NCBI GenBank assembly: GCA_021296095.1
Contig: JAGWBB010000001.1
Location: 20,116-84,115, forward strand
Reading direction: 5' to 3'
DNA length: 64,000 nt
From: Desulfurellaceae bacterium
GTDB taxonomy: Bacteria > Desulfobacterota > Binatia > Bin18
A program made the translations under genes and the position numbers. Below, piece after piece: positions 2,322-16,454 of this stretch. Within the stretch, counting starts at the first letter, position 1, and each line of letters starts with the position of its first letter. The notes under the pieces were generated by a model that saw only the letters and a program-made list of their open reading frames with translations, searched no databases and was not told the DNA's origin.

Positions 2322-3287
2322 TTAAAATACGGCCAGCGGATTCACCGGCGAAGCGGTTCCCTTGACCAGCACCAGCGGAGCAATGACCGACAGAAACGTC
2401 CAGCGCGAGCGCTGGGCGCAGGCCAGGGCGACAGCCTCAAGGTCGCAGTTGTCTATCAGGTGCAGGCCCATGGCTACAATCGTGACGGCATGGATGGGCA
2501 GCAGCAGCTTTTCATAGCCGCTGGGCAGCACATCGCTGGCGCCGTCGCCGGCCATGGCGGCCACTTCGCGGGCGTGCAGCCACGGCAAACAGGCCGCCCC
2601 AAGCCCAGCCATGCCGTCGTTGAACGAGTCCCACGGCCCGGTGGCTTTCAGCCGCGCGTGGCGTCCGGTGCGGACAAACAGCACGTCCCCGCTCTCGACC
2701 CGAAAGCCGCCGGCCTGTTCGGCCTGGTCAAGATCGGCCGGGGTGATTTCCTCTCCGGGTTCGAGCCACTCCTTGCCCTTCAAGCGGGGAATGTCGATCA
2801 GCACGCCCCGAGACACGATCCCGTCTTTGAGCGCGTCGATAGCGCCGTTCTGGGCGCCCTTGGCCCCGACATCCTCTGACGGATAGCCGTTATACATCTG
2901 GCCCTTGTGGAAGACGTGGCACAGCGCGTCGAGGTGGGTGTTGGCCAGGCCGTGGGGGGCAATCGCAAAGTAGTCGGCGCTGTACGGAATCGGCGCGGCA
3001 CTACTCTCTTCTTTGGACCCGGTCTGCATCATGAGGTGCATCACCGGGGTCGGATTATCAGGACCAGGTTCGGTCGCCAGGGGCAGCGACATGGACACGG
3101 CCTGCCCGTCCTGGATGAGGGCCGCGGCCTGGGCCCGCTTTTGCGGCGTAATATAGTTGAGCGCCCCCAGCTGGTCGCCCTGACCCCATTTGCCCCAGTT
3201 GCTGAGGCTGGTGAAAAACTCGTTGACTTGTGCTTCGCTCAGATCACGGTTGGCTGCCATAGCCGTCCCTCCTTTGGCCGGCATCAT
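2322..3287 (-). CDS. putative cyclase-family protein (arylformamidase/kynurenine formamidase-like)
   Basis: Sequence similarity pattern to cyclase family (PF04199-like); exact start uncertain (internal Met possible). Confidence 0.55.
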   Translation of the reverse strand: MMPAKGGTAMAANRDLSEAQVNEFFTSLSNWGKWGQGDQLGALNYITPQKRAQAAALIQDGQAVSMSLPLATEPGPDNPTPVMHLMMQTGSKEESSAAPIPYSADYFAIAPHGLANTHLDALCHVFHKGQMYNGYPSEDVGAKGAQNGAIDALKDGIVSRGVLIDIPRLKGKEWLEPGEEITPADLDQAEQAGGFRVESGDVLFVRTGRHARLKATGPWDSFNDGMAGLGAACLPWLHAREVAAMAGDGASDVLPSGYEKLLLPIHAVTIVAMGLHLIDNCDLEAVALACAQRSRWTFLSVIAPLVLVKGTASPVNPLAVF

Positions 3288-3389
3288 AGGCAGCGCCCAT
3301 CAGAGCTGTCAAGAAAAACAGGCTGGCCAGCCGGCGGACGGCTGTGCTACACCTGGACGGGCTCTGAACACGGGCTGAGCAAACTGAAG

Positions 3390-4124
3390 ATGGATCTGTT
3401 GACTCGACTCACGGACGCGCTGGCCGCCTACGGACTGAACCTGATCGGCACGACGAGCCGGGCGGCCTACGAGGCGCTCGTGCCCGCCACCTACGGCCTG
3501 GAGCCGCTCCTGGCGCAGACCCGAAGCGTTATCGTCATCGGCAACGGAGGGGGCGCTTTCTGGACCGGCTTCCGCCCCTATGCGACCCGTCATGCGGACG
3601 ACCCGCACCCGCTGGATGACTACACGGTCGAAGTCGTCGAACGCAGCCTGACGCCGATTCTGGCATCCTCGGGTGCGCGGTACCGGTATGCCTATCCGTT
3701 TCGTTTTTGGACCGAGCCGGTCTCGTTCATGCACCTGGCTCAGGCCGCAGGTCTGGCCGGGCCAAGCCGGCTGGGCATCATGCTTCACCCGGTCTACGGT
3801 CCGTGGCTGGCTCTGCGCGCTGCGGTGCTGCTTGACCGAGACCTCCACCTCCCGCCCCCGGCAGCGGGCTTTGATCCCTGCCCTGACTGCGCCGAAAAGC
3901 CCTGCATCCAGGCCTGCCCGGCGGGTGCGGTCAGCGCCGGGCGCGGCTGGGATATTCAGGGCTGCGTTCAATATCGGCTGACGGCCAGCCAGGACTGTGC
4001 GGACGCATGTCACGCCCGCTACCAGTGCGTGTACGGCCGGCAGCACCGCTATCCGCCAGACGCCCTGCGCTACCACCAGGCCCACAGCCTGGCCACCATG
4101 CGAAAGTATAGGGAAGACACGTAG
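3390..4124 (+). CDS. hypothetical protein with C-terminal Cys cluster (C-x2-C-x4-C-x3-C-P, Fe-S-like)
   Basis: ORF 2907..4124 is trimmed to the in-frame ATG at 3390 (MDLLTRL...) to avoid overlap with the convergent cyclase gene; motif 'CPDCAEKPCIQACP'; the antisense ORF 3309..4085 is judged spurious. Confidence 0.4.
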   Translation: MDLLTRLTDALAAYGLNLIGTTSRAAYEALVPATYGLEPLLAQTRSVIVIGNGGGAFWTGFRPYATRHADDPHPLDDYTVEVVERSLTPILASSGARYRYAYPFRFWTEPVSFMHLAQAAGLAGPSRLGIMLHPVYGPWLALRAAVLLDRDLHLPPPAAGFDPCPDCAEKPCIQACPAGAVSAGRGWDIQGCVQYRLTASQDCADACHARYQCVYGRQHRYPPDALRYHQAHSLATMRKYREDT

Positions 4125-4778: not shown

Positions 4779-4903
4779 ACCATCCTCCTTGCTGAAGTCT
4801 GGGCTCAACCTATACCAGCCGATACACCGGAGCTAGACGGGCGGGCTGAGACCGCTTCCGACGGAGCCCGATGTAGGCTATGCTTCGCCCCAGGAGACAT
4901 CCT

Positions 4904-5965
4904 ATGCCCCTGCCCGACCCGATCCTGCAATCCGAAGCCTTTGAGTTGAGCGACGCCGTCCAGGTCAACGAGTTCTACCAAGACAAGGGCTGGACCGATG
5001 GCTTGCCTATTGTCCCGCCCACCGCCTACGGGGTAAGCGCCTGTCTGCGGGCGGCGGGACTCAGCCCAGACACGATCATCGGCATCGAACGCGTCCGGCA
5101 GCGGCCCCTGACGGCCGAAAAAGTGGCCATCAACGCCGTCATGGCGGGCTGTCTGCCCAGCTACATGCCGGTCCTGGTCGCCGTCCTGCAAGCCATGTGC
5201 GAGGAGCCGTTCAACCTGCACGGCAGCACGGCCAGTACCGGCGGCAGCGCCCAGTGCATTGTGGTCAACGGTCCCATCCGCCAGACCCTGGGCATGAACG
5301 CCACCCATAATGTGCTGAGCACCGGCAATCGGGCCAATGCGACGATTGGCCGGGCGGTGCGCCTGGTGCTGATCAATGTCCTGGGCTGCGTGCCCGGCCA
5401 GTTGGACCGCTCCACCCTGGGCCATCCGGGCAAGTATTCGCTGTGTCTCGCCGAAGACGAGGAGGACAGCCCGTGGCTGCCGCTGGCCCAACAGCGCGGC
5501 GTGGCCGAGGGCATGTCAGCCGTCACCGTCATGGCCTGCGAATCGCCCCGCCAGACCATGAACGAGTGGACCCACGACCCCGAGGAAATCGTCGAGACCT
5601 TTGCCGCTGAGATGCGTCACAATATGCTGACCTACTCGATCTGGCCGGGCAACTACGGGCTGGTCATTCCCAAACAGCTGCGCGAGTTGCTGGCTGCGGC
5701 CGGTTGGCAGAAACACGACATCCAGGAGTATGTGTACCGCCGCGCCCGGGTCAGGCGGAGCGACTGGGCCGGCGTCGGCAAGGCCGCTATCGTCAACCGG
5801 GGCGGCGGACCGGACCAGGAATTTTGCGCCTTGCGCACCCCAGAGGATCTGCTGGTGGTTGCCGCAGGCGGGCCGGCGGGCGGCTTTGGCGCGGTCGTGC
5901 CGCCCTGGCTGGGGTCCAAGGCGCTGGCGGTGACCAGGCCGGTCACACCGTCGGGAGGAGAATAG
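4904..5965 (+). CDS. conserved hypothetical protein (first gene of selenoprotein operon)
   Basis: Start set at MPLPDP with AGGAGA RBS 7 nt upstream; ends 5 nt before the selenoprotein gene; no family recognised by eye. Confidence 0.5.
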   Translation: MPLPDPILQSEAFELSDAVQVNEFYQDKGWTDGLPIVPPTAYGVSACLRAAGLSPDTIIGIERVRQRPLTAEKVAINAVMAGCLPSYMPVLVAVLQAMCEEPFNLHGSTASTGGSAQCIVVNGPIRQTLGMNATHNVLSTGNRANATIGRAVRLVLINVLGCVPGQLDRSTLGHPGKYSLCLAEDEEDSPWLPLAQQRGVAEGMSAVTVMACESPRQTMNEWTHDPEEIVETFAAEMRHNMLTYSIWPGNYGLVIPKQLRELLAAAGWQKHDIQEYVYRRARVRRSDWAGVGKAAIVNRGGGPDQEFCALRTPEDLLVVAAGGPAGGFGAVVPPWLGSKALAVTRPVTPSGGE

Positions 5966-5969
5966 GCGT

Positions 5970-6494
5970 ATGAGTATCCGCGTTCTGAGTCCGACCTTTG
6001 AGCAAGCCGTGGACCAAAACGGACGGGTGCCGCGTCTGACCTCGTTGCACGGCTGCACCCTGGGGCTGTTGGACAACAGCAAAATCAAAGTCCGCGAGCT
6101 GCTCGACCATGTGGAGGAGCTGCTGCGGACCGAGTATGGCGTGGCCCATGTCGTGCGGCTCAGAAAGCCCGACGCCAGCCGGCCCGCCCCCCCAGAGCTG
6201 GTGACCGAGATGGCGCGCTGTGAGGCCGTCATCTCGGCCGTCGGCGATTGAGGCAGCTGCTCGTCGTGCAGTTTGCACGACGCCCTGAGCGCTGAAAAAG
6301 CCGGCGTGGCGGCCACCGCCATCATCACCGACCGCTTTGTCCAAACCGCCCAGGTCATGGCCCGGGTTTCGGGCATGGCGGATTATCCGTTCGCCGTGAT
6401 TGCCCACCCGATCGCCAATAACAGCCAGACCGTGCTGCGCGACAAGGCCCAACAGGCGCTGCGCCAGTGTGTGGAGCAGCTGGTGCAGGGCTAG
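5970..6494 (+). CDS. UGSC-motif selenoprotein (in-frame UGA at 6249-6251 read as selenocysteine)
   Basis: ORFs 5970..6251 and 6273..6494 are in the same frame, separated only by TGA; readthrough gives '...AVISAVGD-U-GSCSSCSLHDAL...'; a SECIS-like hairpin lies immediately 3' of the TGA; GGGAGGAG RBS upstream of the 5970 ATG. Confidence 0.75.
6249..6282 (+). promoter_or_regulatory. Sec-UGA codon plus bacterial SECIS-like hairpin (CGTCGTGCA-GTT-TGCACGACG)
   Basis: Perfect 9-bp inverted repeat at 6262-6270/6274-6282, starting 11 nt after the UGA; the apical loop contains G-U; this geometry matches the bSECIS placement requirement. Confidence 0.6.
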
Positions 6495-6497
6495 GCC

Positions 6498-7205
6498 ATG
6501 GCTTTGAAGAAAGTGCCCGCCAAGAGCGGTAAACACGCCCTGCGGGAGGAATCCATCCTCCAGGCTGCGGCCGCCTGCTTTGGCGAGCACGGCTACCGTG
6601 CCACCACCCTGGAGATGGTCGCCGAGCGGCTCGACATCTCGCGGGTGACCCTGTACCGCTACTGTCCGAGCAAAGAAGAACTGCTGATTCGGGTCTTTGA
6701 GCGCTCCATCGCCATCTTCCAACGCGGCCTGCGCCACATCTGCGAACAAGACATTCCGCCGGCCGAAAAACTGCGCCAGATCATCCGCCATCAAGTCCGT
6801 CTGATGGCCGATCACCGCAATTTTCTGACCGTCTACTTCAGCGAAGAGGGCAATCTGCCGCCCGACATGGCCGAGCGCTCGCGGGCCGAGCGACGGGTCT
6901 ACGATGGGCTGATCGAGGGGGTGATTCGCCAGGGCGTGGAATCCGGCCAGTTTGCCCGCCTGCCGGTCAAGCTGCTGTCGTTCGCCATCCTGGGCATGTG
7001 CAACTGGCTGTACCAGTGGTACCAGCCCGACGGTCCGCTGGCTGCGGATGAGGTGGCGCGGATCTTTATTGACCTCGTCGAGCACGGCTATCTGCGCGAT
7101 GACCCGCAGCACGAACTGTTGTCCGGCCTGGAGCGGGTCGAAAAAACCCTGAGTTCCCTCCAGCAGCAGCTCCAGCCCGCCTCCCGTTCCGACCCACCCG
7201 CCTGA
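6498..7205 (+). CDS. TetR/AcrR-family transcriptional regulator
   Basis: N-terminal HTH 'TTLEMVAERLDISRVTLYRYCPSKEELL'; starts 4 nt after the selenoprotein stop. Confidence 0.85.
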   Translation: MALKKVPAKSGKHALREESILQAAAACFGEHGYRATTLEMVAERLDISRVTLYRYCPSKEELLIRVFERSIAIFQRGLRHICEQDIPPAEKLRQIIRHQVRLMADHRNFLTVYFSEEGNLPPDMAERSRAERRVYDGLIEGVIRQGVESGQFARLPVKLLSFAILGMCNWLYQWYQPDGPLAADEVARIFIDLVEHGYLRDDPQHELLSGLERVEKTLSSLQQQLQPASRSDPPA

Positions 7206-7241
7206 CACGGACCGCTCCGGCCTTGGCCGCTGGCCGGTCGT

Positions 7242-7271
7242 GTAACCCAAACGCCTGTCTCAGGGGTCTAA
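7242..7271 (+). promoter_or_regulatory. candidate ECF-type autoregulated promoter (GTAACC...N18...GTCTAA)
   Basis: AAC-containing -35-like and GTCTAA -10-like elements resemble sigma-E-type promoters; lies just upstream of the ECF sigma ORF; the spacing is slightly long, so confidence is low. Confidence 0.2.
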
Positions 7272-7892: not shown

Positions 7893-8332
7893 GTACAGCG
7901 TCCACACACCGGTCGCCCGGGCAGACAGACACGGAGTTTGTCACACGCCTGGCCGACCACTATGCCCCGCCCCCCCTCAGCCCAGGCCAGCGGGCCGCCT
8001 GGGACGCGAGGCTCGCCGCCCGGCTTGAAACGCGACGCCGGGCGGCGCTCCTTCCCGGGCTGGCAACGGCCGCGCTCGCCACCGCGCTGGTGTTCGGTCT
8101 GGGCGGGTGGTTTGGGTTTGAGTCGGGCGACCCGCCGGTCCGCCCTGCCCCGGTGGTGTCGGCCACACAAACGCGGACACTTGTCGTGTCTGCGGAAGAT
8201 TCGGTATCTGACCTCCCGGACGACTGGGAGTATCTGCTGGCCTTGCAGCCGGCCGACGAAGAAGAGGCTGAGCAGCCCGGGCTGCTACCGGACGACTATG
8301 CGGCGATCGCAAGCATTTTTTTGGAAAGCTGA
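7889..8332 (+). CDS. putative anti-sigma factor (single-pass membrane protein)
   Basis: ATGA start/stop overlap with the sigma gene; one hydrophobic helix 'LLPGLATAALATALVFGLGGWFGF'; positional logic for sigma/anti-sigma pairs. Confidence 0.55.
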   Translation: MSTASTHRSPGQTDTEFVTRLADHYAPPPLSPGQRAAWDARLAARLETRRRAALLPGLATAALATALVFGLGGWFGFESGDPPVRPAPVVSATQTRTLVVSAEDSVSDLPDDWEYLLALQPADEEEAEQPGLLPDDYAAIASIFLES

Positions 8333-8348
8333 AGTGAAAGGAGAGAAT

Positions 8349-8957
8349 ATGTATCGTGTTGTGTGTGTGTGCGTACTGCTGCTCGGGCTGAGTGTCCCCG
8401 AGGCCAGCGGCGAACAGCCGGGACGGTCTCGGCACGCCGGTCCTCCGGCCGCGCGTTTTATCGAAAAACACGCCGAGCAGCTCGGGATTGACGAAACCAC
8501 CCGGCAGGCCATCCAGAGCCTGGTCGAGGAGGCGCGGGCCAGGGGGCGGGAAATCCGCACTTCCCTGAAGCAGGCGCGGACCGAGATGCGCGGGCTGCTG
8601 GAGCAGGACAGCCCGGACGAAGCCGCGGTCATGCAGCACGCCGAACGGATCGGCGCGCTGCGAACCGAGATCCGCAAAAACCGCCTGCGGGCGATGTTGC
8701 AGATTCGGGCTCTACTCAGCTCGGAACAACGTCAAGCCCTGACCGCACTACGCCAGGAAAAACGCCCCGGTCGCCGGCGAGGGGGACGGTTTGGCGCGTG
8801 TCGGACCAATCTTGCCGAGCTGTGCCCCGAGGCCGGGCCGGGCCGGGCCTCGCTGCAATGTCTCAGCGACAACTGGGCTGCCCTGTCCCCGGGCTGTCAG
8901 GCCGTGTTTGAACGCGGCCGGCATCGGGGCAAACGCAGATCGGAACGGCCGGACTGA
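8349..8957 (+). CDS. periplasmic Spy/CpxP/ZraP-like (LTxxQ) protein with Cys-rich C-terminal domain
   Basis: GAAAGGAGAG RBS; signal-peptide-like N-terminus 'MYRVVCVCVLLLGLSVPEASG'; helical 'LTALRQE' LTxxQ-like repeats; C-terminal 'C...LC...C...C' cluster. Confidence 0.55.
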   Translation: MYRVVCVCVLLLGLSVPEASGEQPGRSRHAGPPAARFIEKHAEQLGIDETTRQAIQSLVEEARARGREIRTSLKQARTEMRGLLEQDSPDEAAVMQHAERIGALRTEIRKNRLRAMLQIRALLSSEQRQALTALRQEKRPGRRRGGRFGACRTNLAELCPEAGPGRASLQCLSDNWAALSPGCQAVFERGRHRGKRRSERPD

Positions 8958-8968
8958 GCCGCGCCAGC

Positions 8969-10450
8969 CTATTGCCCGGACTGCTCCGGCGGCGTAGCGG
9001 ACGACGCGGTGTGGCGGCCGGCCGTCCCGGACGGATTGGTATAGATATCGTTGAGCTGTTGGACGCAGCGGTCGGCCTCGGCCCGGACCTTATCGACGGT
9101 CGCCCGGGTCTGGGCATTCCAGGTCGCCGGTTCGGTGCGAAAAATACTCCGATACCAGCGCGTGCTGTGCTGAAAGGCCTCGACCAGATTGTCTACATGC
9201 TGGTCGGCCTGGTCTCGACGCAAGGCGGTGATGATCCGCTCACGCACCCGGCGGCGAACCTGCCAGTGTCCATAACCGGCCACGACAGCCACCACACCCA
9301 GGCCCCCGCCCCCCAGGCCGAGGAGCAGCTCGCCAAGGCCGAACCAAGCCAGCAGCCCGAGCAAGACCAGCCCCCCTCCGAGCAGTAACCCGTCCCGCCA
9401 CACGACCCCTGTCCGCCAGCCGCGCAGCATGGCCCGCAATTGGGGAATCAGCTGTCGCTCCAGCTCGTTCGCCGAGCGCTCCAGGGTTCCCACCACACGG
9501 TAGGCCTGGGCGGTCCGCACCTGCTGAATACGGGCCTGGATTTCGGCGTGGTCGTGTTCGCGCAGCGCCTCGTACCGGGCCCGGACCTGGGGGTCGGCAA
9601 TCGGGGGCGCCGCCGAGCGGCTGTAGGTGTGATAAAAACGCCCGGCGGTCAGGCCCTTCTGGGCCAGGCCGCGCTGCCAGGCGGCCACCACCTGTTCGGC
9701 GTTGTCATCCTGGGCGGTCGCATCCAGGTGGTTCAGTATGTACAGAAATTTGCTGGAATCCGCCCGCCGGATCGTCTTCTCGACCAGATGCTCAAGCGTA
9801 TCCCGCATCGAGCCCGCTTCTGGGTGGCGGGCATCAAAAAAAACCAGCACCAGGTCGGACAGGGCGACGATGTGGTCGGTCAGACGCAGCACCGCGGTGC
9901 GTTGCTCGTCCGCGTCAAAGCCGGGGCTGTCAATAAAAATCCGGCCCCGAACCACCTGGCTGGGGCAGGTTTTGAGCTGGAGATAGGCGTCCATGCGCTC
10001 GCCCTCGCCCGGTGCCGAGGCCTCAAGCTCGCGGCTGATTTTGTAAAACGGGAAGCGTGGGTCGGCGTCCAGCGCCAGGGCTGGGAGCGCCCGGACCTGG
10101 GCGTCCTGGCCGTAACACACGACGGTAAACTTGTCGTCAACAGCCTGGTTGCCGGTCAGCTGTAAGGGATAGTCGAGATAGTCGTTGAGGAAGGTCGATT
10201 TACCGGCCGAATACGTCCCCAGAACAGCGATGATCGGCCACCACGGCACCTGACGGGTGTAGGACTCGGCGGGCGAGAAAAATCCCAGCCGGCGGGCGAC
10301 GCCATCCAGTTTGCGCAGGCCGGCCACCACGGCCAGAAAGACCGCTCCCTCCTCTTCCAGTTCGTTCTGGATATGTGTCTCAAGAGCCGCCTCAAGACGG
10401 TCCGGGTGAGCGGTCTTGCGTCCAAACAGCACGCGGGCTTCCCCTGCCAC
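8969..10450 (-). CDS. dynamin-like / HSR1-type GTPase with C-terminal transmembrane segment
   Basis: G1 'GTYSAGKST', G3 'DSPGF', G4 'NHLD'; hydrophobic stretch 'LLLGGGLVLLGLLAWFG'; start placed at an in-frame GTG downstream of the RND stop (the ORF-track start at 10612 would overlap the RND gene by ~100 nt). Confidence 0.5.
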   Translation of the reverse strand: MAGEARVLFGRKTAHPDRLEAALETHIQNELEEEGAVFLAVVAGLRKLDGVARRLGFFSPAESYTRQVPWWPIIAVLGTYSAGKSTFLNDYLDYPLQLTGNQAVDDKFTVVCYGQDAQVRALPALALDADPRFPFYKISRELEASAPGEGERMDAYLQLKTCPSQVVRGRIFIDSPGFDADEQRTAVLRLTDHIVALSDLVLVFFDARHPEAGSMRDTLEHLVEKTIRRADSSKFLYILNHLDATAQDDNAEQVVAAWQRGLAQKGLTAGRFYHTYSRSAAPPIADPQVRARYEALREHDHAEIQARIQQVRTAQAYRVVGTLERSANELERQLIPQLRAMLRGWRTGVVWRDGLLLGGGLVLLGLLAWFGLGELLLGLGGGGLGVVAVVAGYGHWQVRRRVRERIITALRRDQADQHVDNLVEAFQHSTRWYRSIFRTEPATWNAQTRATVDKVRAEADRCVQQLNDIYTNPSGTAGRHTASSATPPEQSGQ

Positions 10451-10506: not shown

Positions 10507-12933
10507 TCAGGCGGCGGCCTGGGCCAACCGCTTGGTGATAAAGCCCGGCTTGAACAGCGCGATCAACACCGGCAGCAGGGTCATCGTGGCCAGAAAACTC
10601 ACCCCCATCCACAGCGCCAGCAACAGCCCCATCTCGCCGCTGAAACGCAGGCTCGACATGGTCCAGAACAGGGTCCCAAGCACCATGGTCAGGGCGGTAA
10701 AGGTGACCGCCTTGCCCGAGGTGACCAGCGCCCGCAAGACGGCCGTGTCCAGCGTTTCTCCGGGCTGTTGTTCCTCGATAATCCGGCTGACGATGTACAA
10801 GGCATAGTCAATGCCAAAGCCGACCCCGACCGTGACGACCGGCAGGGTATGGATGTTGATGCCGATATCCCGCGCTCCCATGTAGGCGTTGATGATCGCG
10901 TTGGCGACCAACAGCGGCAGGATCATGTATACCCCCGCCAATAGCGACCGGTAGGTCACCACCAGGATGAGAAAGATCGTGCCAAAGCCGAGGATGTTGA
11001 CCAGAATGTCGTTTGTGAGCAGCTCCTCATTGGCCGCAGCCAGCACCCCGATCGGTCCGCCGGCCAGACGGAAGCGGGCGGTCTCCAGGGGGTTGGCGGC
11101 AATATACTCGCGGGCCCGCTGGATGATCCGACGCACGGTATCGCCCTTGTGGTCGGTCAGGTAAAAATGGATGGGCGCGTGGCGGAACTGATAGTCGATA
11201 ACCCGCGCGCTCTCGCTGTGCGAGACGCCAAAGAAGTAGCCCGAGATCGCCATCAGCACCTGGGTGCGGGACCGGGGCAGGACGTTCCACTTTGGATCGC
11301 CGGTGCCGTTGACCGCGCCCAGGATATCGACAAACGAGAAACTCGCGCCGACCGCCGGATCGCGCTCCAGATAGCGCTGGAAGCTCTCAATCCAGGGTAA
11401 GACCTCGGGGTTCATCAGCGACGGCTGCGAGTCGCGCCGCTCCAGGATTTCCCGGGCGCTCAAGCCTTCCTCAGACGCGCCGGTGTCTTGGGGCAGGGTG
11501 CGTTCGGCCATGACCATCAGGTTTTCCACCCCGCCAAAGGTTTCCTGAATGCGGGCATGGGCGGTGTTGTACGGAGAGTCGCGGTACAGCAGGGGCGAGA
11601 TCGCGCTGGGATCGCCGATGACGAGGTGTTGCCAGAAATAGACGCTGCCGACCATCAGTCCCAGCCAGGTGGCCAGGGTCAGGGCCTTGCCCGCCGGCGA
11701 CAGCAGGACTGCGGCCAGGCTGCTCAGGGTGCGCTTGAACACTCCCTCGTTGCGTTTGAGGACAATCCGCACGTCGGGTTCGCGCAGATAGTGATAGACG
11801 ATCGGATTGAGCAACAGCTCACTGATCGTAATGGCCAGGATCCACACCGCGGCACTGATGGCCAGCTTCTGGAGCAGCACGATGGGGACGAACAGGATGA
11901 CCAGCACCCCCAGTGCATCGGTTAGAATGCCCGACAGGGTCGGCACGAACAGCTGAGCAAAGGCGGCCACAATCGCCGGTTCCTTCTGCCAGTCGGCCTT
12001 CTGATATTCCTCGTAATAGCGCTCGTGCATCTGCACCGAGTGGCTGACCGCCCGGGCGGTAATGAAAAACGGGATGACCAGCGTCAGCGGGTCAAGGCTG
12101 AAGCCGATCATCTTGATAAAGCCCAGCCCCCAGATGGCCGACACCACCCCGGTGATAGTCGGCCGCAGGGCGCCCCGGATGTCGTGGAAATACAGATACA
12201 GACAGAGCCACATCAGGAAGGTGGTTGCCAAAAAGATCCAGTACACCTGCGTGGCGTAGTAGTACACCCAGCCGTACAGCGCCGGGTGGCCGGCAACGTG
12301 GATGGTCGTGTTGTCGTCGCTGAACGGCTCGACCACCGCGCCCATGACTTCGTCAAACAGCCGCCGATGATCGATCCGGCCCTCGATAAACGTGGCTTGC
12401 AGCAGGGTGGCTTTTTCGTCGAGCGATACCAACACCCCGTACAGATTGGGGGTGGTGTAGACGATCTCCCGCACCCGGCGCACATCGTTCTCGTTCTGCG
12501 GGGCGCGTTCCATGATCGGCTCGATCTCGGTCAGGCCGCCGCCCTTGAGCTGGATACGCCGGTTGGTTCGGTGGGCTAGAGAGTTAATCAGGTCGTGGTT
12601 GACGCCGTAGATCGTATCGAGCCGCTTGGTCATCTCAAAGACCTTGCCCAGCGTCTCACGGGTAAAGATGGTCCCTTCCTTGACCTCCAGCATGATCTGG
12701 AGTGTATTCGCTCCGCCGACCTCTTCGGCATATTCGTTATGGGTCTGGATGAACTCGTGATCCTGCGGCAGCTGTTCGTCAAAACGGGTGATCAGATCGA
12801 GTTGAAAGGCAAAGGCGGCAAATATCAACGTCGCCACCGCAACGCCGCTCAAGACGATCTTGCGCCGCGCGATCAGCTGTTCGCCGAGGCGGTACAGAAA
12901 AGCCTGGTCTGTGTTCTGCTCTGTTTCACTCAT
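10507..12933 (-). CDS. RND-superfamily exporter (MMPL/HpnN-like), 12 TM with two large periplasmic loops
   Basis: 808 aa; two repeats of (TM + large soluble loop + 5 TM), typical of RND/MMPL permeases. Confidence 0.75.
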   Translation of the reverse strand: MSETEQNTDQAFLYRLGEQLIARRKIVLSGVAVATLIFAAFAFQLDLITRFDEQLPQDHEFIQTHNEYAEEVGGANTLQIMLEVKEGTIFTRETLGKVFEMTKRLDTIYGVNHDLINSLAHRTNRRIQLKGGGLTEIEPIMERAPQNENDVRRVREIVYTTPNLYGVLVSLDEKATLLQATFIEGRIDHRRLFDEVMGAVVEPFSDDNTTIHVAGHPALYGWVYYYATQVYWIFLATTFLMWLCLYLYFHDIRGALRPTITGVVSAIWGLGFIKMIGFSLDPLTLVIPFFITARAVSHSVQMHERYYEEYQKADWQKEPAIVAAFAQLFVPTLSGILTDALGVLVILFVPIVLLQKLAISAAVWILAITISELLLNPIVYHYLREPDVRIVLKRNEGVFKRTLSSLAAVLLSPAGKALTLATWLGLMVGSVYFWQHLVIGDPSAISPLLYRDSPYNTAHARIQETFGGVENLMVMAERTLPQDTGASEEGLSAREILERRDSQPSLMNPEVLPWIESFQRYLERDPAVGASFSFVDILGAVNGTGDPKWNVLPRSRTQVLMAISGYFFGVSHSESARVIDYQFRHAPIHFYLTDHKGDTVRRIIQRAREYIAANPLETARFRLAGGPIGVLAAANEELLTNDILVNILGFGTIFLILVVTYRSLLAGVYMILPLLVANAIINAYMGARDIGINIHTLPVVTVGVGFGIDYALYIVSRIIEEQQPGETLDTAVLRALVTSGKAVTFTALTMVLGTLFWTMSSLRFSGEMGLLLALWMGVSFLATMTLLPVLIALFKPGFITKRLAQAAA

Positions 12934-13132
12934 GGCACGCTTCCTCCTGGCTGGTGTCGCTCAGCCCGCGGCCCTGACCATCCCATCCAAACCAAACCGC
13001 GTCAAGCACCGTTCAGGGTCGGCCCGCAACACGGGAGCGATCACGCCGAAGACCGCTGCCGCCTTGCAAAGCCCACAGCCAGGCTCTAGTCTCGGCAGAG
13101 ACGGTGTCACGGCGCAAAAATGGGGATCAGCT

Positions 13133-13741
13133 ATGTCACAGGCAATAGCACAGACGGTCTTGAATGTTCCGTTTCGGCTCAAGGTCGAGGCGGCTCGGTT
13201 GACCGAGCAGCAGTTCGTCGAGCTGTGCCGGGAGAACCGGGATTTGCGGTTTGAGCTGACTGCCGACAAGGAGCTGGTCATCATGGCGCCAACGGGCTCA
13301 GAAACCGGCCGGCAGAACAGTGAAATTGCCTACACGCTGACGGCTTGGGCCAAGCGAGATGGAACCGGACTGTCGTTTGACTCTTCGACCGGCTTTCGCC
13401 TGCCGAACGGGGCCATCCGCTCACCGGATGCCGCCTGGGTCAGGCGAGAGAGCTGGCACGCCCTCAGCCCGGAGCAGAGACGAGGCTTTGCTCCCCTGTG
13501 CCCGGATTTTGTGCTGGAACTGCGCTCGCCGAGCGATCAGCTGTCAGCCTTACAGGACAAGATGCAGGAGTATATCGACAACGGCGCGCGCCTGGCCTGG
13601 CTGCTCGATCCGTCAGAAAAACGGGCGTATATCTATCGGCCCGGGCGACCGGTCGAACGGCGCGACGGTCCGCCCACGCTTCGCGGCGACCCGGTGCTGC
13701 CGGGCTTCGTGCTGCGCCTGGACGTGCTGAACTTGTCCTGA
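13133..13741 (+). CDS. Uma2-family (DUF820) PD-(D/E)xK endonuclease
   Basis: Family-typical sequence 'FRLKVEAARLTEQQFVELCRENRDLRFELTADKELVIMAPTGSETGRQNSEI...PDFVLELRSPSD'; trimmed to the ATG at 13133. Confidence 0.7.
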   Translation: MSQAIAQTVLNVPFRLKVEAARLTEQQFVELCRENRDLRFELTADKELVIMAPTGSETGRQNSEIAYTLTAWAKRDGTGLSFDSSTGFRLPNGAIRSPDAAWVRRESWHALSPEQRRGFAPLCPDFVLELRSPSDQLSALQDKMQEYIDNGARLAWLLDPSEKRAYIYRPGRPVERRDGPPTLRGDPVLPGFVLRLDVLNLS

Positions 13742-13787
13742 ACGAACCCTGACGAAGCCGGCTGGCAGTCATTTGATGTGGATGGGA

Positions 13788-14285
13788 TCAATCCGGTTTT
13801 CGGCATACGTTTCTTCTCAACAGTTCTCGATGGCTACGACGGAACTTCGTATTATCCAGTGCCTGAGGAGCGTTTTTATCCCTACGCGTCGTATAGACTC
13901 TTCCCTGCGGATTTTCGATTAATTTTCTATCTCTGAAATCGTCGCCGAGATCTCGGTCGTTAGAATATAATAGCCGAGCTCCGCTGACTTGGGCTAAGGC
14001 AAGAATATGAGGATCGTCTGACCTAATTGCCCCCTCGCGTTCGATTTGCCGTGTTCTCGTCTCAACTTCTCTCTCATTCACGGTTATCATTTTTCCAGCA
14101 AGCTGGGCCGCCACCCCCCAGCGTCTGAAGTCTGGCGAAGTCTCTTCAAGCTCCTTGAGCAATTTGCCGCCAACAATCAGCCTGCCCCCTCCACTTTCGA
14201 GCCACTCATAGAACTTCTCTGCTGGAGGTGATGGGCTATCTCCGAACACCTCGTGAGCCACGTTGACGTCAACAATTGCGCACAT
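13788..14285 (-). CDS. PIN-domain-like putative nuclease (partner of upstream ATPase)
   Basis: N-terminal 'AIVDVNV' and later acidic residues ('ELEET', 'SDDPH', 'SNDRDL') fit a PIN catalytic quartet; lies in the low-GC island 23 nt downstream of the ATPase. Confidence 0.45.
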   Translation of the reverse strand: MCAIVDVNVAHEVFGDSPSPPAEKFYEWLESGGGRLIVGGKLLKELEETSPDFRRWGVAAQLAGKMITVNEREVETRTRQIEREGAIRSDDPHILALAQVSGARLLYSNDRDLGDDFRDRKLIENPQGRVYTTRRDKNAPQALDNTKFRRSHRELLRRNVCRKPD

Positions 14286-14308
14286 TCTTCTTCAGGTCCA
14301 TGCGGATT

Positions 14309-15667
14309 TCATCTCTTCCATAAAGACCTTCGCATTTCTTCCATGAAGAACTGTCGGTAGCCTGGCGGGGCGTCCAAGACGTTTCCCTGTTCGTCAAATC
14401 GTAACGAATGAATGTGAACGTCCAGGTCCTCACGTTCAAAGTACAAGACGGAAACGTCCTCGGGCTTCAATTTCGTCTCTTCGTCGCGTACGTCCATACG
14501 CACTCGGTCCAGCAAGTGGTCGCTGTGTGTTTCGACTATCAATTGACGCTCCGGTCCGGCGACCTGGCAGAATAAGCTTCCAAGAGCGGCTTGGGCGCTG
14601 GGGTGAAGATGCACTTCTGGTTGCTGCAACAGAAACAGGGACGGCGCCTCTCGGCTCAGCAATTCGGTTATTACGGGTAGCACCTGACTGACGCCATAGC
14701 CGACATCAACGAGGTTGCGCTGAGGACCTTTTAGTCGGCGGCCAAACTTTCTGACCTGCACTTGGAAAGGTTCGCTATCTTTTTTCCCGAGTGGCCTAAT
14801 AGAGATTTCATCGAAAAGACCTGCATCTCGCCCGAAGTTCTCAAGCGCTTTTCTCAGTCTGGCCCACCCGTTCTGGTCGCTGAAGTACATGTTGGCGAGA
14901 TACATGGGAACGAAAACGCCTTCGGCATCCCGGATCAGACGAGTAGGGTCGTAGGTTCGGCGCGGGTAGGAGCGGACGGGTGCGCTGGCATAAGGTGGCG
15001 TCTCTTCGCGATAGCGATAACTGTCCCGGTCGAGAGTGAGGTTCAGTTGTTCGATGAGGTCAAAATCTTCATCGGTAGGCGAACTGGAGCCTTGTGGTGT
15101 GATTAGCTCTATATTTCTCCGATCTATGAACTCCTTCAATATCCGTGGAATAGAGAAAAAAACTGAAATCCGGTCGTCATAGGCATCTAATCGGACACGA
15201 CGAATATAGGGCGTCTTCAACCTCCAAGCGCCCCGTGGCGTCCCAAAGCTGACCTGACAGTGGTAGTTTCTCTCGAAAAGAACCTCGATCCAGCCACCTT
15301 CACGGGCAAGCCGTGCTCCCACAGGGATCGGCGCAGTCCCCGTCTTTCCGAAAGTCACCTCGAAACAATAGGACTGACCGTTGGGTTTCAGGCTTGGGGA
15401 AACGTTGAAGCCCGCCTCGAAGGTCTTAGCTCGGCCTCCTCTTGCGCCCCGGTGGTGGACGATCTCCTCATAACTTCCAAGATCATAGGGCTCTTCTTTA
15501 AAGTCTGGAATCTCATGCTCGTAAGCAATGTCCCACAGCGCCCGGATCAGCGCCATGAATGAGGTCTTGCCGGTGCTGTTCTCACCGACGAGCAGGGTCA
15601 GCGGAGCCAAATGGGCGGTCTGCCTCTCCCGGAAACAACGGAAATTTTCGAGTGTGATACTGTCCAT
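14309..15667 (-). CDS. AAA_21/OLD-type ABC ATPase (PtuA/AriA/GajA-N-like), no fused nuclease domain
   Basis: N-terminus 'MDSITLENFRCFRE...LTLLVGENSTGKTSF' (Walker A); C-terminal Walker B/D-loop 'LFLLQQPEVHLHP' and H-loop 'IVETHSDHLL'; GGAGAC RBS; ORF start trimmed from 15808 to the Met at 15667. Confidence 0.7.
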   Translation of the reverse strand: MDSITLENFRCFRERQTAHLAPLTLLVGENSTGKTSFMALIRALWDIAYEHEIPDFKEEPYDLGSYEEIVHHRGARGGRAKTFEAGFNVSPSLKPNGQSYCFEVTFGKTGTAPIPVGARLAREGGWIEVLFERNYHCQVSFGTPRGAWRLKTPYIRRVRLDAYDDRISVFFSIPRILKEFIDRRNIELITPQGSSSPTDEDFDLIEQLNLTLDRDSYRYREETPPYASAPVRSYPRRTYDPTRLIRDAEGVFVPMYLANMYFSDQNGWARLRKALENFGRDAGLFDEISIRPLGKKDSEPFQVQVRKFGRRLKGPQRNLVDVGYGVSQVLPVITELLSREAPSLFLLQQPEVHLHPSAQAALGSLFCQVAGPERQLIVETHSDHLLDRVRMDVRDEETKLKPEDVSVLYFEREDLDVHIHSLRFDEQGNVLDAPPGYRQFFMEEMRRSLWKR

Positions 15668-15842
15668 GACAGTGTCTCCATTCTTCGCCTCAACACCGAC
15701 AACAGCATAATAGCGGGCAGGCACTGCTCGTTGCACCCATGAGGACAAGGAGCCGAAGAACGTCGGCAAGTAGCAGAAAGTCCGTGATGTGATCCTGTTC
15801 GATGCCAATCAGCGCACACAATGCGTCGGCACGACCACCAGA

Positions 15843-16454
15843 CTAACGCTCCAGCTCGGTGTTCCAGTACGCCGCGTCGACCTCGCTCAGATACGGCAGC
15901 CACTCCCGGTAGCGCTTGAAGCTGAAGGTCTCGATCATGAACGGCGTCCACTCCGGCTGAACGGGCTTCTCGATCAGCCGCATGTGGGTCTCTTCGAGCA
16001 GCAGACCGCCTTTCTTGCGGTTGCAGGCAAAACACGAGCACACCACGTTGTCCCAGCCCGAGGTACCGCCCTTGGAGCGTGGAACGACATGGTCGAGGTT
16101 CAGCTCCGAGCGCGGCAGGCGCCGGCCGCAGTACTGACAGGTGTTCTTGTCGCGGGCAAAGACGTTGAAGCGCGAGAAACGCACCCGCCGCTTCGGCACC
16201 CGGTCGTAGGCAACCAGCAGGATGACGCGTGGGACCTTGATGGCTTGGCCGACCAGACCGATGGTTTCGTCGTTCAAGGATGCCGACAGGGCGCTCCAGC
16301 TGTTGAAATCGAAGGTCTGGTACTGATCATCAACGGCTTTGGCCACCCCCTGGTAGAGCAGGGAAAACGCGCGCCGCAGCGAGGTGACGTGGACAGGAAA
16401 GTAGGATCGGTTGAGCACCAGCACCTTGGTATTGAGTACACTCATGGCTGCCAT
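15843..16454 (-). CDS. HNH endonuclease (McrA-like, COG1403)
   Basis: 'CQYCGRR...LDHVVPRSKGG...NVVCSCFACNRKKG' HNH/zinc-finger motifs; N-terminal 'VLVLNRSYFPVHV' family-typical. Confidence 0.8.
   Translation of the reverse strand: MAAMSVLNTKVLVLNRSYFPVHVTSLRRAFSLLYQGVAKAVDDQYQTFDFNSWSALSASLNDETIGLVGQAIKVPRVILLVAYDRVPKRRVRFSRFNVFARDKNTCQYCGRRLPRSELNLDHVVPRSKGGTSGWDNVVCSCFACNRKKGGLLLEETHMRLIEKPVQPEWTPFMIETFSFKRYREWLPYLSEVDAAYWNTELER

Follow-up and report, generated by a model that had tools for sequence, protein, structure and literature searches.

A predicted UGSC-family selenoprotein gene with a SECIS-like hairpin and a conserved partner gene in a Candidatus Binatia contig

The UGSC-containing selenoprotein family, in whose motif (Sec-Gly-Ser-Cys) U stands for selenocysteine (Sec), was reported in 2007 with ABI76733.1 of Hyphomonas neptunium as prototype (Zhang & Gladyshev, PMC1976440). 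A 2008 survey of Global Ocean Sampling (GOS) data placed UGSC among the most abundant selenoprotein families, with 255 Sec forms and 21 cysteine (Cys) forms (PMC2398784), and reviews of 2022 (PMC9312934) and 2026 (PMC13188914) still list the family as uncharacterised. Here we analyse a 64-kb window, i.e., the whole stretch of DNA under study, from contig JAGWBB010000001.1 of a Desulfurellaceae bacterium (Candidatus Binatia), in which positions 5970-6494 are best read as a single gene for a 174-residue UGSC-family selenoprotein, a reading supported by the anatomy of the sequence and by its relatives. A preliminary description of the locus had stated that UGSC-type selenoproteins are known from bioinformatics and have no assigned function, which holds up. 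Compared with the family as defined by Pfam PF24696 and NCBIfam NF041046, the window gene is typical: it matches over the full length, carries the motif in the expected column, belongs to a set of loci in which Sec and Cys alternate, and has a predicted selenocysteine insertion sequence (SECIS) just downstream. Nothing essential differs, and since the family has been known since 2007-2008 and is curated in both Pfam and NCBIfam, the gene is a routine member of a catalogued family and changes nothing in principle. The selenoproteome papers found do not deal with Candidatus Binatia, the host lineage, and our literature search returned nothing on Sec use in Binatia or Binatota.

Outside its own family, UGSC can be compared with dedicated redoxin and enzyme pairs or fusions, in which a thioredoxin-fold or peroxiredoxin-like domain is joined to the enzyme that it reduces. 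As in these, a short chain bearing a U/CxxC motif at a predicted helix N-terminus has a larger, conserved-Cys protein as its neighbour or fusion partner, and an AhpC/Redoxin domain can stand in for UGSC within one and the same architecture. UGSC differs from them in its predicted flavodoxin/Rossmann-like fold, and in that its partner belongs to no recognisable enzyme family. Glycine reductase selenoprotein A (GrdA) is a small Sec-containing redox carrier; at the sequence level, UGSC resembles neither GrdA nor thioredoxins.

The gene and its in-frame UGA

The features that concern the gene pair are given below; all coordinates of loop, stem and open reading frames (ORFs) are positions in the 64-kb window, and the 174 residues are numbered from the ATG at 5970.

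4904..5965, + strand: conserved partner gene, about 353 aa, in no Pfam or NCBIfam family, ending 4 nt before the UGSC start
5953..5960, + strand: Shine-Dalgarno-like sequence GGGAGGAG, 5' of the UGSC start and overlapping the end of the partner gene, from direct reading of the sequence
5970..6494, + strand: predicted UGSC-family selenoprotein gene, 174 codons with one in-frame UGA and a TAG stop at 6492-6494, from translation and Pfam/NCBIfam matches
6249..6251, + strand: UGA codon, predicted selenocysteine (residue 94, the U of UGSC), from Sec/Cys alternation among related loci
6262..6282, + strand: predicted bacterial SECIS hairpin, 9-bp stem 6262-6270/6274-6282 with loop GUU 6271-6273, within the codons for S-S-C-S-L-H-D

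ORFs 5970..6251 and 6273..6494 are one frame, the sole break in which is the TGA at 6249-6251 (the end at 6251 counts the stop). The frame is already open from 6252, and the TTG at 6273 is a mere restart point of the program that listed the ORFs. Translation through the TGA yields 174 aa, reading ...AVISAVGD-U-GSCSSCSLHD..., with SAVGD-U-GSCSSCS at residues 89-101; the two same-frame ORFs parted only by a TGA, and the 174-aa readthrough product with this central segment, are thus as first described. The G+C content at third codon positions (GC3) is 0.82 and 0.84 on either side of the TGA. The partner gene ends with a TAG at 5963-5965, and its spacing from the UGSC ATG at 5970 fits co-transcription of both genes.

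In profile searches, which were run with U replaced by C, the product matches Pfam PF24696 "UGSC" with 178.2 bits (gathering 25), residues 5-172 aligning to positions 2-171 of 172 in the profile, and the NCBIfam equivalog NF041046 "UGSC family (seleno)protein" with 133 bits against a cut-off of 125; the proposed assignment to the UGSC type is thereby confirmed at near full length. The U/C-G-S-C motif is present at the conserved site, after a hydrophobic strand and G-D, and residues G92, D93, G95, S96, C97 and S98 are invariant in 100-101 UGSC-family sequences. Database homologues come in two kinds, i.e., continuous proteins of 174-186 aa with CGSC, many of them named "UGSC family (seleno)protein" by NCBI, and fragments that end exactly at ...VGD or start just past it. 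Such fragments are the product of gene callers' treatment of UGA-containing genes. One Sec-form homologue, the JGI metagenome protein P0001 (174 aa), was deposited as a continuous chain with Trp at the UGA (…VGDWGSC…), apparently by a gene caller that used a code with UGA as sense.

At the DNA level, 86 loci (6 metagenomic and 80 genomic) were compared. The codon at the UGA position is TGA in 56 of them and TGC or TGT in the other 30, and the expectation that Cys homologues align to the U is therefore borne out at exactly that codon. The TGA loci belong to Candidatus Binatia, Entotheonella, Burkholderiales and other Betaproteobacteria, one Dehalococcoidia and one Nitrospinota, and the TGC/TGT loci mostly to Actinomycetota. 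The nearest relatives of the window protein are from Binatia metagenome-assembled genomes (MAGs), with 93-95% protein identity, which makes that lineage the most likely source of the window.

The hairpin downstream of the UGA

Bacterial SECIS elements, with that of E. coli fdhF as archetype, are hairpins inside the ORF just 3' of the UGA (bSECISearch consensus, PMC13188914 Fig. 2A), and the predicted UGSC hairpin has the same placement. Its arms, CGTCGTGCA (6262-6270) and TGCACGACG (6274-6282), pair perfectly over 9 bp and enclose the loop GTT at 6271-6273; the first base of the stem is the 11th nucleotide past the UGA, and the UGA-to-loop distance is 19 nt. The preliminary description, which placed a perfect 9-bp stem 11 nt past the UGA, at the position of bacterial SECIS elements and with G-U in the loop, is accurate on each of these points. 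According to the published consensus (PMC13188914), a bacterial SECIS has a loop of 3-9 nt with a G within the first two positions, a stem of 4-16 bp, a UGA-loop distance of 16-37 nt and a minimum free energy (MFE) of -7.5 kcal/mol or lower. The window hairpin is inside all of these ranges, with a 3-nt loop that opens with G followed by U (GUU), a 9-bp stem, a distance of 19 nt and an MFE of -13.3 kcal/mol, as are the hairpins of 52 of the 54 distinct Sec-form sequences. Relative to other bacterial SECIS elements, the UGSC hairpin is unusually invariant across phyla (GUGCA-GUN-UGCAC).

Taken as a single sequence, the 56-nt hairpin segment folds with -22.3 kcal/mol and z = -2.4 versus shuffles, and with such a z value the fold signal is modest. 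The comparative signal, on the other hand, is strong in the alignment of related loci. The 9-bp stem is found in the same register in 52 of 56 Sec-form loci and in none of the Cys-form loci. Across 55 distinct Sec-form sequences the codons of the stem are near-frozen (Ser+5 TCG in 53, Cys+6 TGC in 54, Ser+7 AGT in 54 and His+9 CAC in 54), whereas equally conserved residues flanking the stem vary synonymously (Cys+3 is TGC in 27 and TGT in 28; Gly-2 uses four codons). Standard pairs fill 98.8% of the stem cells in 54 distinct sequences, compared with at most 45% for slid registers, and none of 500 shuffles matches the observed pairing or covariation score. Stem pair 21-39, both members of which are third-codon positions, shows a compensatory switch, with GC in 32 sequences, AU in 15 and the intermediate GU in 4, and RNAalifold applied to the aligned Sec forms returns the identical stem.

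All Sec forms contain a third cysteine (U-G-S-C-S-S-C), the codon of which is part of the predicted SECIS stem. This Cys is gone from the actinobacterial Cys forms (C-G-S-C-S-A-A/S), and the proteobacterial-type Cys forms P0002-P0005 retain it without the hairpin. To judge from the aligned sequences, protein and RNA constraints coincide on the third-Cys/stem codons.

The partner gene and the predicted fold

The partner gene probably starts at ATG 4904, with AGGAG ahead of it at 4892-4896, although the listed ORF begins at 4880. A partner homologue adjoins UGSC in 84 of 85 loci, in either gene order, the lone exception lying at a contig end. Sec-form clades have the partner upstream of UGSC, and in the actinobacterial Cys-form clade it follows UGSC directly. 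Two distant partner homologues, picked regardless of context, also have a split (Sec-type) UGSC gene adjacent to them, again in either order. The partner is the only universal neighbour of UGSC. A second universal neighbour indicated by ORF clustering (44 loci of 86) was rejected, as it arose spuriously from antisense low-complexity ORFs of GC-rich DNA.

The partner family is large, with no fewer than 7,918 clusters when grouped at 90% identity and no fewer than 4,892 representatives when grouped at 50%, and there is no annotation among the homologue clusters listed. No NCBIfam model recognises the protein, nor does any Pfam model even at E <= 10. In 76 diverse sequences, two cysteines (C83 and C181, counted from ATG 4904) reach a conservation of 90% or more, the near-invariant pair being located in MAGC and CxAExEE motifs. 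The AlphaFold2 model of the partner has a mean predicted local distance difference test (pLDDT) score of 95.3; it shows no significant relative among solved structures (PDB), and a partner profile gave no meaningful match to PDB sequences.

Single-chain fusions with UGSC ahead of the partner domain are represented by P0352, P0399, P0391 and P0387, and fusions in which an AhpC/Redoxin domain (thioredoxin fold, CPTC) takes the same position by P0336, P0398 and P0333. Because a classical thiol-disulfide redoxin can occupy the position of UGSC, we infer that UGSC acts as a dedicated selenol/thiol redox subunit, and the redoxin fusions are the main argument for such a role. The 2008 GOS paper mentions a "UGSC/Unknown_1" fusion (PMC2398784); Unknown_1 is probably the partner family; a search for partner motifs in part of the supplement text of that paper gave no match. 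Tandem double-domain partner proteins of about 715 aa also occur (P0253 and P0256).

In actinobacteria, the UGSC-partner pair is accompanied by Opp/Dpp-type ATP-binding cassette (ABC) importers, short-chain dehydrogenases, Amidohydro_2, a CoA-transferase and IclR regulators, and elsewhere by MaoC, Rieske dioxygenase, acyl-CoA synthetase, TctC and a Pyr_redox_2 reductase. Such neighbourhoods suggest that a small organic molecule is imported and catabolised. In Georgenia alba (JBHTCQ010000001.1; L091:184-1879 and 8001-9804), two Cys-form UGSC-partner pairs are found within 8 kb, the second followed by genes for a short-chain dehydrogenase/reductase (SDR), a CoA-transferase, an Amidohydro_2 protein, an IclR regulator and an Opp-type ABC transporter.

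For the Cys-form homologue P0002, AlphaFold gives a confident model (pLDDT 89.5, predicted template modelling score 0.84) of a (beta-alpha)5 domain that is flavodoxin/Rossmann-like and not thioredoxin-like, and this model does not lend support to the 'Trx-like fold' guessed for UGSC in 2008 (PMC2398784). A UGSC profile gave no meaningful match to PDB sequences. Residue 94 (Sec or Cys) is placed by the model just past strand 86-90 (strand 3), at the N-terminus of helix 95-110 (helix 3), and the invariant Cys97 follows three residues, or one turn, later to form a UxxC motif; Sec forms additionally have Cys100. As modelled, this strand-end/helix-start site of residues 94 and 97 is a typical setting for a redox-active pair. 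A (C/U)xxC motif at a helix N-terminus is also what thioredoxin-fold oxidoreductases possess, and the predicted resemblance would be functional only.

Proposed mechanism, alternatives and significance

We propose that the SECIS hairpin at 6262-6282, situated inside the coding sequence, recruits SelB and Sec-tRNA(Sec), and that the UGA at 6249-6251 would be decoded as Sec by the standard bacterial route; both the anatomy of the gene and the comparative data point to Sec insertion at this codon. Sec94 and Cys97 would cycle between the selenol/thiol and selenenylsulfide states, and UGSC would serve as a dedicated redox subunit of the approximately 353-aa partner (4904-5965), reducing or otherwise turning over its two near-invariant cysteines (MAGC, CxAExEE). 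The partner would be the catalytic, substrate-handling subunit. For this explanation as a whole, i.e., a UGSC selenoprotein with SECIS-directed Sec decoding that functions as redox subunit of the partner, we estimate a probability of about 0.8.

A number of observations weigh against it. The 15 A-U cells of the covarying stem pair derive largely from one Binatia clade, and the independent covariation events are therefore few. No Rfam covariance model recognises the UGSC hairpin as a SECIS, neither in the whole window at gathering score nor in 6200-6340 at E <= 10 (noise only); this negative result weighs little, since to our knowledge Rfam is without any general bacterial SECIS model. The preliminary description had named the lack of a covariance-model call as refuting evidence; Rfam indeed makes no such call, but the hairpin lies inside every published bSECIS range and shows covariation. 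One relative, at L009:3989-4060 (Candidatus Binatota MAG WTHE01000682.1, 93% aa identity), has the loop AAC following a change of the loop Ser to Lys (AGT to AAA); it is devoid of the G and breaks the published SECIS rule, with the 9-bp stem intact. This may be a defective copy or an assembly error, or the loop G may be dispensable here.

The 64-kb window furthermore contains no selA, selB, selC or selD, as the preliminary description had maintained: ARAGORN finds no tRNA in it, Pfam scans of its 55 long ORFs reveal no SelA, SelB or SelD domain, and LepA is its sole EF-Tu-like GTPase. Nor is there a credible in-frame-TGA gene for a second selenoprotein elsewhere in the window. Some UGSC-partner fusions (P0352: CGTS) are without the resolving Cys and are at odds with a simple UxxC selenenylsulfide cycle. 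Finally, the fold was modelled on P0002, which is 51% identical to the window protein, with a 100-sequence alignment.

The main rival to a redox role is that Sec94 (Cys in the Cys forms) is a metal or Fe-S ligand at the UGSC-partner interface, together with the two Cys residues of the partner. Sec ligates Ni in [NiFeSe] hydrogenases and Mo in formate dehydrogenase, and these enzymes provide the model for such a role. UGSC could supply one to three Cys/Sec ligands and the partner its near-invariant pair; retention of the first Cys only, as in P0352, is compatible with a ligand, and the weak structural echoes of the partner include the Fe-S hydro-lyases fumarate hydratase (7xky), L-serine dehydratase (4rqo) and CyuA (9fsl). 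We regard a ligand function as unlikely, if worth keeping in view.

A real stop, a pseudogene and a reassigned codon are each very unlikely. Were the TGA a true stop, the locus would represent a split or decaying gene or two small genes, and the hairpin would be incidental or an attenuator of transcription or translation, which is how public data, with two ORFs annotated, might be taken, and which would agree with a window that lacks Sec machinery. However, the same TGA recurs in 56 loci that span five or more phyla or classes, and in 54 of them the frame stays open over 54 or more codons past the hairpin. The median ratio of non-synonymous to synonymous substitution rates (dN/dS) is 0.15 downstream of the UGA versus 0.22 upstream, and purifying selection on an open downstream half implies that this half is translated. 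Homologues that stop at this position, with nothing aligned downstream, had been named in advance as evidence to the contrary; what was found instead are Cys forms that are continuous. Moreover, the hairpin exists only where the codon is TGA, and neither a start codon nor a ribosome-binding site for a second gene is present directly past it. Termination at this codon thus has very little to commend it. Decoding of UGA as a standard amino acid (Trp, Gly or Cys), via an alternative code or near-cognate suppression, can claim the W deposited in P0001 and is the least credible of all, as TGA terminates 26 of 53 long window ORFs and 17 of 56 UGSC genes and the genetic code is therefore standard, the table 11 coding density of the window is normal, the position aligns with Cys and never with Trp or Gly in natural continuous homologues, and a code reassignment needs no dedicated conserved hairpin.

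Downstream of the UGSC gene lies one further gene in close succession:

6498..7205, + strand: TetR-family regulator gene, starting 3 nt past the UGSC stop, with Pfam TetR_N and TetR_C_24

It is missing at the equivalent site in four related loci (L001, L003, L004 and L006), and is local context that is not conserved with the UGSC-partner pair elsewhere. A 435-aa ORF at 5943-7250 on the minus strand runs antisense over the UGSC and TetR genes with a GC3 of 0.69. It is of the spurious kind that GC-rich DNA typically yields, with no family match to be expected, and might lead automated annotation astray. At 2907-4124 (+), a 405-aa ORF has a ferredoxin-like CPDCAEKPCIQACPAG motif and no Pfam match at E <= 1e-8; the overlap of its 5' part with a cyclase gene on the opposite strand makes a true start further downstream probable. 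A block of lower GC3 at 12860-16454 (0.49-0.60 versus about 0.75 elsewhere) encodes four proteins, namely a Uma2-family endonuclease, a 165-aa protein without match, an AAA_15/AAA_21 ATPase whose best PADLOC match is NsnB (162 bits; AriA/PtuA/GajA-like), and a weakly PtuB-like HNH nuclease. The block resembles an anti-phage defence islet gained by horizontal transfer.

For the UGSC family, the public contigs examined demonstrate that automated gene calling still yields two pieces for such genes. What is new here is the near-universal, large and unannotated partner, the interchangeable redoxin fusions and the predicted non-thioredoxin fold, which together offer a testable handle on UGSC function. 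Cys-form pairs are present in cultured actinobacteria (Microbacterium, Pseudonocardia, Georgenia and Solwaraspora), in catabolic-looking operons, and the function is therefore approachable by ordinary genetics and biochemistry. Tentatively, and with somewhat less than even confidence, we suggest that UGSC and its approximately 353-aa neighbour are the two subunits of a widespread and as yet undescribed (seleno)enzyme with a role in catabolising an imported small molecule, composed of a catalytic subunit and a flavodoxin-fold Sec/Cys redox subunit replaceable by a peroxiredoxin-like domain. If true, this would provide one of the most abundant aquatic selenoprotein families with a function and would establish a new enzyme family whose members number in the thousands.
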